Positions 53,313 through 60,525 of a stretch of DNA of 64,000 nt are shown piece by piece. The stretch is from NCBI GenBank assembly GCA_002269645.1, contig NIVC01002603.1, positions 93,725 to 157,724 of the forward strand, written 5' to 3'. How positions within the stretch are numbered: the first letter of the stretch is position 1; each line of letters begins with the position of its first letter. The position numbers were made by a program, and so were the translations under genes. The notes beneath the pieces were generated by a model. That model was given only the letters and a program-made list of their open reading frames with translations. It did no database searches and was not told the origin of the DNA. This DNA comes from Macrostomum lignano (taxonomy: Eukaryota).

Positions 53313-53325
53313 TCACAGTTTCCCT

Positions 53326-55272
53326 ATGCCGACCAAAAGCCGAAGCTGGTACAGCTCGCATCACCGCCAAGCAAGAGTACCTCAACAACCAAACAGTCGT
53401 CCACATGGCCAGCAGTACCAAGGTGTGCGTTCGGCTGTGAGGCGACTATCTCCAGAACATGGCCGGCAGTTTGATCGCCAGCGTGACGGCGATGTCAGAT
53501 CTAGAAGCCGCCATCGCCAAAGAGACCGCGCTACGCAGGACAGGACGGGCGGCGACCGGCAACAACGTCGGAATGCAGGTGGGTCGCTGACAACCGCCGC
53601 GTCCGGAGTCGCCCGCCAAGTCAAACAGCTGTTTCGTGCTGCTCACCACCTGGAAAATTGGCAGGTGACACCATCTTCGATCCGACTAAAGTCTCAGCAG
53701 CTGAAAACACTAATCAGGCCTGCAGTGCCCACGGAATCGACAAAATCGCGGATTGCTGAGAACGCCGATCAGTGGGAAGTCAGCACGCTAGACACAATGC
53801 AGAGCCATTATGAGATCAGCATCCATCATCTAGCTGCTGAACTTCTGGAAGCCAGGAAGGACGCTGACCCTTCTGATTGGGAAACCGGCTGGCAAGTCGG
53901 TTTTCACTGGGCGGCGAAGGACCTCGGCAGAAGATTCAGCTACAGCCCTGATCTGCTGCAATACCGGCTGAAAAAAATGTCCATCGAGCTGAAGGTACCT
54001 GAATTTACTGCTAACAAAGGTAGGACTATCTCTTCTTTTGATACTGTGATTGTAAGCAACCAAACCACCAGCTCTATGGGGGTTCCCGTTTCAAACCTCT
54101 TGTCTGGGGTGGTGGGTTCGAATCAACCCCACCAAGCCGCCAGCCCTGTGACAACTGAGCAGGGGAGGGAGCAACCAGCAGGGAATCGTCCCTCCAGCCC
54201 TTCAACGGGCATGGAAGAATCTCCCGACTGGCGAGGCTTTAACGAGGAACCGAGCATGCTAAGCCATACGGACGAGGACAACCAAGCTTGCCCGCCGATT
54301 TTTCCGACAGAAGAGCCGCCTGAAGGGCTCAATTCGCAAATGCAGGGTCCAGTTGCCTGTGACCAGGGGCTGGACACGGGGGTGGTCTGTGACCAGACAC
54401 CTCCACCTGCAAACTCCATTGCTGCTGATCAAAACGAATCAGCTATTTCAATACCTGCCATCTTGACTTCGAGTCGTCAACAGCAGAGTCAAGTCGCCTG
54501 TGACCAGGGGCTTGACACGGGGGTGGTCTGTGACCAGACATCCCCAGCTGCTGCTAATAGCAACAACATCGATGCCAGCCAAGCTGACTCTTTCGTGTCT
54601 TTTGCGACACCCACCGACAACGTTGCATTTTTACAGAGTAGATTTGCTTGCGCTGAGCCACCCAGGCTTGCCAGTGACAGCAATAGGGACAGTCTTGAGC
54701 TGACCCCTCCTCGATCGGCACTTGCTCAACCAAGCCAGATTAACGTCCATAGGGGACTTAAGAAAGACTGGAAACTGACCCCTATCGAAAAGTCAACGAT
54801 CGCGATCGGCGATGAGAGTCTCTCTGAGCCCGGGCAAGCGCACCCAGATGTACAATTTGAAATTTTTCCGAATCTACGCGCTGAGAACCTAATCAGGGTG
54901 CTGCGTGAGCAGTTGAAAAGCCCTAGCTCAGCTGTCAAAGCGGTCATTCTCTTCCCTTGTGGTCATGACCTGTCGAGACAATTTGAAGGTGTCCTCGACA
55001 AACAGCTCACGACAATCGTGAATCATTGTCGCAAGGCCTTTCCAGAGGCAAACATCTACACACTTGACTCAGTGGTGGATGCCGAGGCAACGGACAGCGT
55101 CCGAAGCAATGTGGAAAAATTGAACCGCCATGCCCAGAATCTCAACCAGAAGGGGCACATGTCACTACCCAGACAGGGTTTGACCTTCCTGTCAGACAAG
55201 GTCACACTATCTGACCAATCGGCCTTGGAGGTCTTCAGGATTGTCTATGGCAAAGTACAAAAAAACTTGTAG
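53326..55272 (+). CDS. PLE ORF1, 648 aa: basic Arg-rich N-terminus, helical region, disordered linker, C-terminal SGNH/GDSL esterase-like domain
   Basis: Uninterrupted ORF. C-terminus IAIGDESL...FPNL...VILFPCGHDL...AFPEANI...LN...DKVTL follows the SGNH block order. Confidence 0.75.
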   Translation: MPTKSRSWYSSHHRQARVPQQPNSRPHGQQYQGVRSAVRRLSPEHGRQFDRQRDGDVRSRSRHRQRDRATQDRTGGDRQQRRNAGGSLTTAASGVARQVKQLFRAAHHLENWQVTPSSIRLKSQQLKTLIRPAVPTESTKSRIAENADQWEVSTLDTMQSHYEISIHHLAAELLEARKDADPSDWETGWQVGFHWAAKDLGRRFSYSPDLLQYRLKKMSIELKVPEFTANKGRTISSFDTVIVSNQTTSSMGVPVSNLLSGVVGSNQPHQAASPVTTEQGREQPAGNRPSSPSTGMEESPDWRGFNEEPSMLSHTDEDNQACPPIFPTEEPPEGLNSQMQGPVACDQGLDTGVVCDQTPPPANSIAADQNESAISIPAILTSSRQQQSQVACDQGLDTGVVCDQTSPAAANSNNIDASQADSFVSFATPTDNVAFLQSRFACAEPPRLASDSNRDSLELTPPRSALAQPSQINVHRGLKKDWKLTPIEKSTIAIGDESLSEPGQAHPDVQFEIFPNLRAENLIRVLREQLKSPSSAVKAVILFPCGHDLSRQFEGVLDKQLTTIVNHCRKAFPEANIYTLDSVVDAEATDSVRSNVEKLNRHAQNLNQKGHMSLPRQGLTFLSDKVTLSDQSALEVFRIVYGKVQKNL

Positions 55273-55301
55273 GTTTTAGGAATGCGGCTAGCAACCAAGT
55301 C

Positions 55302-57725: not shown

Positions 57726-57785
57726 TTCTTAGAATTAAAGAAATTGTGAATTTGCTTCAACTGTGTGCGTGGTTTCATTTCGCAT

Positions 57786-60375
57786 TATCTATCTATCTAT
57801 CTATCTATCTATCTGTCTATCTATCTATCTATCTATCTATCTATCTATCTATCTATCTATCTATCTATCTGTCTATCTATCTGTCTATCTATCTATCTAT
57901 CTATCTATCTATCTATCTATCTATCTATCTATCTATCTATCTATCTATCTATCTATCTATCTATCTATCTATCTATCTATCTATCTATCTACCTATCTAT
58001 CTATCTATCTATCTATCTATCTATCTACCTATCTATCTATCTATCTATCTATCTATCTATCTATCTATCTATCTATCTATCTATCTATCTATCTATCTAT
58101 CGATCTATCTATCTATCTATCTATCTATCTATCTATCTATCTGTCTATCTATCTATCTATCTATCTATCTATCTATCTATCTATCTATCTATCTATCTAT
58201 CGATCTATCTATCTATCTATCTATCTATCTATCTATCTATCTGTCTATCTATCTATCTATCTATCTATCTATCTATCTATCTATCTATCTATCTATCTAT
58301 CTATCTATCTATCTATCTATCTATCTATCTATCTACCTATCTATCTATCTATCTATCTATCTATCTATCTATCTATCTATCTATCTATCTATCTATCTAT
58401 CTATCTATCTATCTATCTATCTATCTATCTATCTATCTATCTATCTATCTATCTATCTATCTATCTATCTATCTATCTATCTATCTATCTACCTATCTAT
58501 CTATCTATCTATCTATCTATCTATCTACCTATCTATCTATCTATCTATCTATCTATCTATCTATCTATCTATCTATCTATCTATCTATCTATCTATCTAT
58601 CTATCTATCTATCTATCTATCTATCTATCTATCTATCTATCTATCTATCTATCTATCTATCTATCTATCTATCTATCTATCTATCTATCTATCTATCTAT
58701 CTATCTATCTATCTATCTATCTATCTATCTATCTATCTATCTATCTATCTATCTATCTATCTATCTATCTATCTATCTATCTATCTATCTATCTATCTAT
58801 CTATCTATCTATCTATCTATCTATCTATCTATCTATCTATCTATCTATCTATCTATCTATCTATCTATCTATCTATCTATCTATCTATCTATCTATCTAT
58901 CTATCTATCTATCTATCTATCTATCTATCTATCTATCTATCTATCTATCTATCTATCTATCTAACTATCTATCTATCTATCTATCTATCTATCTATCTAT
59001 CTATCTATCTATCTATCTATCTATCTATCTATCTATCTATCTATCTATCTATCTATCTATCTATCTATCTATCTATCTATCTATCTATCTATCTATCTAT
59101 CTATCTATCTATCTATCTATCTATCTATCTATCTATCTATCTATCTATCTATCTATCTATCTATCTATCTATCTATCTATCTATCTATCTATCTATCTAT
59201 CTATCTATCTATCTATCTATCTATCTATCTATCTATCTATCTATCTATCTATCTATCTATCTATCTATCTATCTATCTATCTATCTATCTATCTATCTAT
59301 CTATCTATCTATCTATCTATCTATCTATCTATCTATCTATCTATCTGTCTATCTATCTATCTATCTATCTATCTATCTATCTATCTATCTATCTATCTAT
59401 CTATCTATCTATCTGTCTATCTATCTGTCTATCTATCTATCTATCTATCTATCTATCTATCTATCTATCTATCTATCTATCTATCTATCTATCTATCTAT
59501 CTATCTATCTATCTATCTATCTATCTATCTATCTATCTATCTATCTATCTATCTATCTATCTATCTATCTATCTATATATCTATCTATCTGTCTATCTAT
59601 CTGTCTATCTATCTATTATCTATCTACTATCTATCTATCTATCGATCTATCTATCTATCTATCTTCTTCTATCTATCTATCTATCTATCTATCTATCTAT
59701 CTATCTATCTATCTGTCTATCTATCTGTCTATCTATCTATCTATCTATCTATCTATCTATCTATCGATCTATCTATCTACCTATCTATCTATCTATCTAT
59801 CTATCTATCTATCTACCTATCTATCTATCTATCTATCTATCTATCTATCTATCTATCTATCTATCTATCTATCTATCTATCTATCTATCTATCTATCTAT
59901 CTATCTATCTATCTATCCATCTGTCTATCTATCTATCTATCTATCTATCTATCTATCTATCTATCTATCTATCTATCTATCTATCTATCTATCTATCTAT
60001 CTATCTATCTGTCTATCTATCTGTCTATCTATCTATCTATCTATCTATCTATCTATCTATCGATCTATCTATCTATCTATCTATCTGTCTATCTATCTAT
60101 CTATCTATCTATCTATCTATCTATCTATCTATCTATCTGTCTATCTATCTGTCTATCTATCTATCTATCTATCTATCTATCTATCTATCGATCTATCTAT
60201 CTATCTATCTATCTATCTATCTATCTATCTGTCTATCTATCTATCTATCTATCTATCTATCTATCTATCTATCTATCTATCTGTCTATCTATCTGTCTAT
60301 CTATCTATCTATCTATCTATCTATCTATCTATCTATCTATCTATCTATCTATCTATCTATCTATCTATCTATCTA
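57786..60375. repeat. (TATC)n microsatellite, tract 2 (~2.6 kb)
   Basis: Direct reading. Confidence 0.98.
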
Positions 60376-60525
60376 GCACAGCCAATATATTTGTTTTTAA
60401 ACCCGAATAAATAAACCCTGACGAAGGCCCAGTCTAGGCCGAAATATCGGTTTCTGAATATTCGACAACTAACGTTCTTCAATATTTCCGTGTGTGTGGT
60501 TTGCAGTTTGAAGCTGCCTTTTGCA
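60376..60525 (+). mobile_element. 150-bp 3'-terminal fragment (solo pLTR-like) of a related PLE family
   Basis: Contains a hammerhead and a GTGTGTGTGGTTT motif matching GTGTGCGTGGTTT near the end of the full element; otherwise divergent. Confidence 0.75.
60413..60453 (+). ncRNA. Minimal type I hammerhead ribozyme, second variant
   Basis: AAACC-CTGACGA-A-GGCC[cagtcta]GGCC-GAA-ATAT-C-GGTTT; stem I AAACC/GGTTT; palindromic ATAT; predicted cleavage after C60448. Confidence 0.85.

Follow-up and report, generated by a model that had tools for sequence, protein, structure and literature searches.

A recent two-gene Neptune-type element in TATC repeats of Macrostomum lignano, with a candidate RNA-recognition module shared with non-coding hammerhead families

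Results

A very young two-gene element lies in a TATC array

The last 12.7 kb of the DNA analyzed here, a 64,000-nt stretch of Macrostomum lignano (GenBank assembly GCA_002269645.1, contig NIVC01002603.1, positions 93,725 to 157,724; hereafter, the window), is a (TATC)n array that carries two inserts on the plus strand. We think it probable that the larger insert is a recent copy of a two-gene Neptune-type Penelope-like element (PLE) that resides in TATC repeats, likely expresses its second open reading frame (ORF) by frameshifting, and carries within the first an RNA module that is likely an RNA-recognition signal. A first-pass annotation, made from the sequence alone, had described an SGNH-like ORF1, a frameshift-linked ORF2 with reverse transcriptase (RT) and GIY-YIG domains, and a hammerhead ribozyme. 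This architecture is real and mostly known. The further claim that the combination marks a new lineage is not supported, as its parts are each in print: SGNH esterases in PLEs (PMC3905857; PMC5408684), a PLE ORF1 separated by a frameshift with a pseudoknot (Fig. 1 legend of PMC8557442), hammerheads (PMC4209133) and a microsatellite bias in Neptune (PMC8557442). In addition, ORF1 has 311 clusters of relatives.

A single array begins at position 51328 and runs to the end of both window and contig, broken by two non-repeat blocks of 4,472 bp (53314-57785) and 149 bp (60377-60525; Table 1). Both blocks have the same orientation and their 3' ends enter T-A-T-C in the same phase, so that the common orientation and register first noted hold at both 3' junctions. 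The larger block belongs to what we call family A; by ORF2 identity to the window, the local families are A (100%), B (75%), C (44%) and E (35%). As a 29-nt tail is seen between tandem family A units, the full unit is 4,502 bp. The window copy has no pseudo-long terminal repeat (pseudo-LTR) upstream, and 25 nt are missing from the start of the tail; at the 5' junction, the array meets unit position 26 with 4 nt of microhomology.

Family A is a very young Neptune-type PLE family. We searched its own genome and scored the best 30 of 235 candidates; among these, 39 of 41 matches are long or terminal pieces with 94-100% identity, and several full-length copies are 100% identical. Copy divergence, a check that the first-pass annotation had proposed, therefore supports its suggestion of a potentially active element for the family, which was recently active; the window copy, being without an upstream pseudo-LTR, is probably itself no source copy. 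Arrays of at least three units lie on contigs C29, C668 and C1095, and each of 14 tandem junctions carries the 29-nt tail. This is the pseudo-LTR and tandem organization of endonuclease-bearing (EN+) PLEs, whose tails measure 30-40 nt. Contigs C1555 and C2740 repeat the junction, the flank and the downstream fragment of the window copy and were taken to hold the same insertion as the window. The element's sequence also appears in 18 sequencing runs, none of which is recorded as RNA.

ORF1 and ORF2 meet at a conserved slippery heptamer

Both ORFs are intact, as first described, with no internal stop in ORF1 (53326-55272) or in ORF2, which is open from 55215 to 57542 in the -1 frame relative to ORF1. 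The -1 junction of this layout was likewise confirmed. In all four families an in-frame heptamer is followed by a stop after zero or one codon, with ORF2 in the -1 frame, which is the X XXY YYZ arrangement of programmed -1 frameshift signals. The heptamer is A AAA AAC in A, B and C and T TTA AAC in E; in family E (loci L098-L102) the end of ORF1 is too diverged for our ORF1 profile, and the slippery site is still kept. Beyond this genome the evidence is at the protein level only. We located the last SGNH block in 109 of 119 aligned outside relatives of ORF1, and 83 of the 109 have an Asn five residues past the last conserved Trp (background Asn, 5%). The residue before it is L, K, G or P in 71 of these 83, and these are the products of X XXA AAC. 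A metagenome scan with ORF2 gave two weak 44-aa matches only, which were not used. On the strength of this conservation, a -1 slip is well supported and likely.

Two other accounts of the junction bear consideration. That the split is an assembly error in the A run is a negligible prospect: although other copies in the assembly do have homopolymer indels, the same 7-A run is found in 17 of 18 family A copies, independent short-read contigs from two studies cross the junction without a gap, and three other families share the layout. We also think it improbable that ORF2 is expressed through splicing or from its own start, with no frameshift, and that ORF1 and ORF2 would be separate proteins. 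PLEs can have spliceosomal introns (PMC4209133), a Met is present at ORF2 codon 32 in A and B, and no stimulatory fold is predicted. However, heptamers of two types stand in frame at the same place in four families, the Met follows a conserved N-terminal motif and is not kept in C and E, and contigs from four runs, whose status as RNA is our guess, show no joint over the junction.

ORF1 encodes an SGNH fold without its catalytic residues

ORF1 had no match in Pfam, no relatives in a word-indexed search, and none returned from the ESM Atlas and PDB sequence searches. A full HMMER scan recovered the 311 clusters (at the 50%-cluster level), in which two parts are conserved; among 30 relatives, 12 match Lipase_GDSL_2 below its cut-off. 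In the predicted structure, the predicted local distance difference test score (pLDDT) is above 90 in the helical and SGNH domains and below 50 over residues 1-71. The SGNH-like reading of the fold proved correct, with matches to SGNH hydrolases (Foldseek E 5.7e-6) and to PAF-AH (VIA Z 17.3, root-mean-square deviation 2.5, 169 residues aligned). Searched against PDB and viral folds, the helical domain had no Foldseek match at E<=0.001 and a best VIA Z of 7.9, an absence that does not amount to novelty.

What the first-pass annotation missed is that the active site is dead. While 119 relatives keep the catalytic residues in most cases (Ser in 106, Gly in 112, Asn in 105, His in 107), all four are missing from the window protein, and none of families B, C and E has the full set. 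Between A and B the SGNH domain nevertheless retains 55% amino-acid identity while only 8 of 37 fourfold sites are identical; the domain is thus constrained as protein despite its dead site, and a non-enzymatic role is likely. As family E stands apart from A, B and C in the ORF2 tree, esterase activity may have been lost twice. The dead-esterase signature, with a Lys-Asn C-terminal end, also occurs in metagenome-derived proteins (P0014, P0033, P0045, P0099 and P0153; also L105 and L106), of which P0153 clusters with family C.

ORF2 and the hammerhead follow the Neptune pattern

The RT and GIY-YIG domains first read in ORF2 were recovered by Pfam, the former as RVT_1 (E 1.6e-9) and the latter at E 0.0026, under Pfam's cut-off. 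An RT followed by a C-terminal GIY-YIG with CCHH is the layout of EN+ PLEs, the difference being that the canonical elements have a single ORF and this one has two. The linker motif, C-x4-C-xx-C, agrees with the CX2-5CxxC motif of Neptune defined in PMC8557442, and its spacing is like that of the Neptune rows and unlike that of the Nematis rows in Fig. S2 of that paper. Judged by its motifs, the element appears to belong with the esterase-bearing Neptune elements. In a tree of ORF2 from the four families and 60 of 120 relatives, A, B and C form a clade (support 0.998) and E falls apart from it.

The hammerhead calls also stand, by manual reading, in both window inserts, with no Rfam match for the family A element or the non-coding loci. 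In seven variants we find the core, an extra base before stem II, a G-C first pair, a palindromic stem III and a covarying stem II. These were matched by hand to the minimal hammerhead descriptor of PMC4209133, and cleavage is a prediction.

ORF1 carries a candidate RNA module

Within the linker of ORF1 lies a feature absent from the first-pass annotation, a 69-nt module with two copies each in the window and in family B. Older relatives have it too, and the non-coding families described below hold two to nine copies per unit. In both of its predicted hairpins a purine bulges out 4 bp below the 4-nt loop, and the second window copy was the best of 76 ORF1 windows in a z-score scan. In an alignment of 15 distinct copies, 94.5% of cells are paired and both sides change in 14 of 28 pairs; none of 500 shuffles reached the observed pairing, and slid controls gave 34-44%. 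RNAalifold, unaided, returned nearly the same fold. A covariance model located the module in A, B and relatives, and the version of the non-coding families had 405 exact matches (control, 0). Between A and B, 15 of 19 fourfold sites in the module are identical; the corresponding counts are 98 of 265 for SGNH and ORF2 together (p=4e-4) and 10 of 25 for the linker (p=0.014). By this measure, synonymous sites are constrained in the module. In non-coding copies the hairpin spacing is off by -2 and +1 nt, so that the frame is broken and the fold kept.

Non-autonomous elements tend to retain the cis parts required for mobilization, and on this ground the module can be read as a recognition signal. 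We therefore treat it as a candidate recognition or packaging signal and lean, if only somewhat, toward the view that the element's proteins use it to pick their RNA. It is unlikely that the module acts instead at the DNA level or as some other element, such as an internal enhancer, a cruciform, a translation pause or an RNA-stability fold, that serves both kinds of element. A paired DNA structure would covary alike, families C and E have also transposed and have no module, and the loops hold the word TGACC, which we take to resemble nuclear-receptor half sites. Yet frequent stem changes of the G-U type (7 G-U vs 7 G-C in one pair) fit RNA, every unit examined has the module on its sense strand, and a translation pause would be of no use to a non-coding unit.

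Non-coding hammerhead families share the module

The first-pass annotation took the 149-bp block for the 3' fragment of a sister family. It is a 3' fragment, in the same array, and its source is a non-coding tandem family, not a coding sister. In a search that gave 199 candidates, of which the best 40 were scored, no ORF1 or ORF2 match was found beside the family's 3' end in 15 loci and 7 longer stretches examined. Tandem units measure 1,883 bp on contig C171 and, in a relative, 1,075 bp on C2209, with a hammerhead in each; the longest ATG ORF in the former is 67 aa, and the latter has a 250-aa low-complexity frame. With a type I hammerhead in every non-coding tandem unit, these families agree with how non-LTR retrozymes are defined. 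Compared with family A by sensitive blastn (E<1e-5), they match in the module and the hammerhead only.

If these families were decayed ORF1 remnants, then the module could have persisted, functionless, by descent and tandem duplication. In keeping with this, one frame of the non-coding units reads like ORF1 peptide over about 10 residues, and module copies lie within internal repeats of 205 and 255 bp. We give the idea little credence, as no other ORF1 or ORF2 trace is detectable, the second hairpin has been rewritten through compensatory changes, and synonymous sites are constrained within the coding families.

Chimeric copies also occur. At C353:456000-464000 (L050) and at L013, a family B 3' part is fused to a family A-like ORF1 start, and the upstream flank is a degenerate TATC-derived minisatellite. 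Contigs C2005, C829, C2004 and C1982 (L107-L110) hold several near-identical copies of a repeated chimeric unit made of a deleted family A-like element, the non-coding module and a family E 3' end.

Insertions share a phase and a target-like tail seed

To the claim of TATC targeting, whose proposed tabulation of flanks was run, we can now attach counts. Family A has 38 3' ends in the fetched loci, with 14 tandem junctions set apart and six pattern matches within the RT of family B dropped. All 24 non-tandem ends start at T-A-(T/A)-C and lie in (TATC)n or (TAAC)n: 22 in long TATC, one in short TATC and one in TAAC, three of the 24 being one insertion. The 22 listed 5' junctions are all in such arrays as well and fall at 21 distinct positions of the unit. 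Target-primed reverse transcription would be expected to leave this pattern in pre-existing arrays, with the 3' end fixed and the 5' ends variable. The 3' flank is TATC for family B (5/5), and non-tandem ends of the non-coding family abut TATC (8) or TAAC (2). TC repeats flank family C (9/9) and family E (6/9, the other three rows being one chimeric repeat).

Each family's tail opens with its own flank repeat, over 5 nt in A (TATCT), 8 nt in B (TCTATCTA), 5-7 nt in the non-coding families (TATCT(AT)) and longer TC runs in C and E. This target seed, which the first-pass annotation did not report, is our addition to the targeting claim; its match to the flank suggests pairing of the nicked strand, as primer, with the RNA template. 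After the seed, all TATC-targeting tails (A, B and non-coding; L001:1472-1500, L087, L046 and L048) carry a short conserved word, CCC-N-GGACC-R-G, which has GACCAG in common with the hairpins of the module and might offer protein another contact.

There is an appreciable, though lesser, chance that the endonuclease alone sets the target and that the seed plays no part in priming and is a relic of some earlier insertion site. The Cys linker has been proposed to mediate the microsatellite bias of Neptune (PMC8557442), the Poseidon element PAc primes without homology (PMC11167929), and three insertions lie in (TAAC)n, at one mismatch to the seed. Against this, wherever a family has a tandem junction the seed lies right at the 3' junction and its sequence varies with the flank repeat, and the phase is fixed.

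Other features of the window

The (AGAC)n (14836-15514) and (TGTC)n (39636-40244) arrays of the window hold no inserts of these families; one non-coding-family fragment elsewhere (L044) is flanked by TGTC on its upstream side and by TATC downstream. A degenerate, telomere-like (AACCCT)n repeat lies within the contig at 2828-3056, beyond GC-rich minisatellites. On the minus strand, a 99-bp tandem repeat (45683-47290) codes for 33-residue repeats spread over two frames, presumably ankyrin-like judging by their pattern.

Table 1. Features of the TATC array and its two inserts, in window coordinates.
Feature	Position	Strand	Value or basis
(TATC)n array, upstream flank and target site	51328..53313	+	TRF, 496 copies
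Family A near-full monomer (Neptune-type Penelope-like, unit 4,502 bp)	53314..57785	+	100% identical copies on other contigs
ORF1, 648 aa: Arg-rich N-terminus, helical domain, acidic disordered linker, SGNH-fold domain	53326..55272	+	
Arg-rich disordered N-terminus, candidate RNA-binding peptide	53326..53580	+	20 Arg/85 aa, pI 12
Conserved all-helical domain, aa 88-217, with 43-residue helix	53587..53976	+	model pLDDT 92
Predicted RNA module copy 1: three-way junction, closing stem and two hairpins	54342..54410	+	
Predicted RNA module copy 2, compensatory changes relative to copy 1	54483..54551	+	z -3.17, 0/200 shuffles
SGNH-fold domain, dead active site	54748..55269	+	E497, N516, H547 and T627 replace S, G, N and H
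Slippery heptamer A AAA AAC, ORF1 frame (ORF1 stop 55270-55272)	55260..55266	+	no indel in spanning short-read contigs
ORF2, -1 frame, 760 aa from heptamer: RT, thumb, Cys linker, GIY-YIG; predicted fusion ~1,405 aa	55260..57542	+	
RT core (Pfam RVT_1 stretch)	56058..56558	+	E 1.6e-9
C-x4-C-xx-C linker motif between RT and endonuclease	56886..56912	+	translation
GIY-YIG endonuclease with CCHH motif; Arg, Glu and Asn at expected catalytic places	57009..57310	+	
Minimal type I hammerhead, predicted cut after 57718	57683..57724	+	manual reading
(TATC)n array between the two insertions	57786..60376	+	
3' end of non-coding hammerhead-bearing tandem family (1,883-bp unit elsewhere); hammerhead 60413-60453	60377..60525	+	
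(TATC)n array up to contig end	60526..64000	+	

Discussion

A model for cargo selection and insertion

These observations can be arranged into a working model. Tandem source copies, whose head-to-tail junctions are seen in the DNA, would be transcribed across those junctions. Most ribosomes would end at ORF1, and a minority would slip at the conserved A AAA AAC to yield the fusion of about 1,405 aa. ORF1p, as a non-enzymatic scaffold with a dead SGNH domain, might then bind the twin-hairpin module through its Arg-rich end. At the target, the GIY-YIG domain would nick the GATA strand between repeat units, and the freed 3' end could pair with the 5-8 nt target-like seed of the tail, from which the RT would copy onward; the observed counterparts of this step are the fixed 3' end, the phase and the seed. 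Copying would often halt early and leave the variable 5' ends that we see. Non-coding families whose anatomy is reduced to seed, hammerhead and module may be copied in trans into the same repeats.

Taken further, the parts may form a single system, a reading that we hold tentatively and at somewhat less than even confidence. Here the Arg-rich end of the pseudo-esterase ORF1p would read the module as a signal for packaging or recognition, retrozymes would outcompete the host element by carrying two to nine copies of it, and a telomerase-like tail seed would co-determine which microsatellite is hit. Seed, hammerhead and module together would then make up a minimal, re-targetable cargo RNA.

Several points weigh against our interpretation. 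Slip, nick, binding and cleavage are all predictions. The 15 aligned module copies are related and do not represent independent events, so that the shuffle control overstates significance, and the module structure was derived from the same sequences that were used to test it. The covariance model finds no module in 14 loci of C and E, nor did a z-score scan of these families (20 shuffles per window) reveal a comparable one; the module, being absent from the TC-associated families, is thus no general feature, and the E loci probably lack part of ORF1. As C and E encode part of the TC run themselves, the case for their targeting is weaker. In none of the four families is the heptamer followed by a significant hairpin or pseudoknot (z 0.33, -0.77, 0.71 and -0.55); at 5-9 nt downstream, where a stimulatory fold would lie, hairpins can be drawn in B and C and none is better than shuffles. 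The clade was assigned by motifs and not by a tree with named references. Finally, PAc, the only PLE studied in vitro, starts reverse transcription at a site without homology to the cut DNA (PMC11167929).

With its identical, intact copies, a family this young makes two open questions directly testable. One is how esterase-type ORF1 proteins without folded RNA-binding domains find their RNA; Arg-rich peptides have been proposed to bind specific RNA structures, none of which was named (PMC3905857). The other, left open in a recent preprint (bioRxiv 10.64898/2026.07.22.740005), is how animal retrozymes recruit the Penelope machinery in trans. The non-coding families are a natural deletion series that names the cis parts needed, and four families with two flank repeats in one genome allow swap tests of target choice. 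If the interpretation is true, then a site-specific retroelement with a defined cargo signal, entering neutral microsatellites, would be interesting with a view to gene insertion.

Comparison with known systems

A full-text literature search found no description of the module, of its retention within ORF1 and by retrozymes, or of TATC-phase targeting with a tail seed; Repbase and Dfam are outside its scope and may hold part of this. Our comparison literature includes PMC12602865 as well as the papers below. The Poseidon element PAc of Anolis (PMC11167929) is alike in its tandem organization, tail, hammerhead, internal RT start and protein-binding RNA within the ORF (its first 172 nt). It differs in having a single ORF and in cutting AT-rich DNA. 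ZfL2-1 is a long interspersed nuclear element (LINE) with an apurinic/apyrimidinic (AP) endonuclease. Its ORF1p and those of other esterase-bearing LINEs (PMC3905857) share with ours a helical N-terminal part, an Arg-rich motif and a C-terminal SGNH domain, but the ZfL2-1 protein is an active esterase, and no RNA target was identified for it in that work.

Athena elements and Terminons (PMC8557442; PMC6431247; PMC5408684) also carry a short target-like repeat beside the hammerhead, which aids attachment, and GDSL ORFs, of which Athena-L has dead copies (PMC5408684). The pairing that the introduction of PMC8557442 describes for Athena at telomeres resembles the seed pairing proposed here. However, Athena has no fused endonuclease and attaches to telomere overhangs, whereas family A has a fused GIY-YIG and inserts inside arrays.

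The closest likeness is to the Neptune-like elements of fish and molluscs, which bear esterases (PMC5408684; PMC8557442). Shared features are an RT with C-terminal GIY-YIG, the CX2-5CxxC and CCHH motifs, a hammerhead near the 3' end, tandem and partial-tandem copies, a tail of about 30 nt, a microsatellite bias and an SGNH domain upstream of the RT. By eye, RT motifs 3 and 4 of family A are nearer to two Neptune rows than to the Poseidon, Nematis and Hydra rows of Fig. S1 in PMC8557442. The local families differ in the loss of the SGNH active site, each residue of which is kept by 105-112 of 119 relatives, in their strict TATC/TAAC phase, and in the RNA module embedded in ORF1, which is not described in the passages compared.

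Non-LTR retrozymes (PMC7229834; bioRxiv 10.64898/2026.07.22.740005) likewise consist of tandem repeats that are non-coding and have a type I hammerhead in each unit, and they have been proposed to be non-autonomous PLE derivatives. The units described here are longer, at 1.07-1.9 kb compared with consensus lengths of 51-972 bp in a preprint search that stopped at 1,000 bp, and they combine a minimal hammerhead with microsatellite targeting. Whereas the preprint reports similarity at the termini (pLTR), the homology in our families includes the internal ORF1 module.

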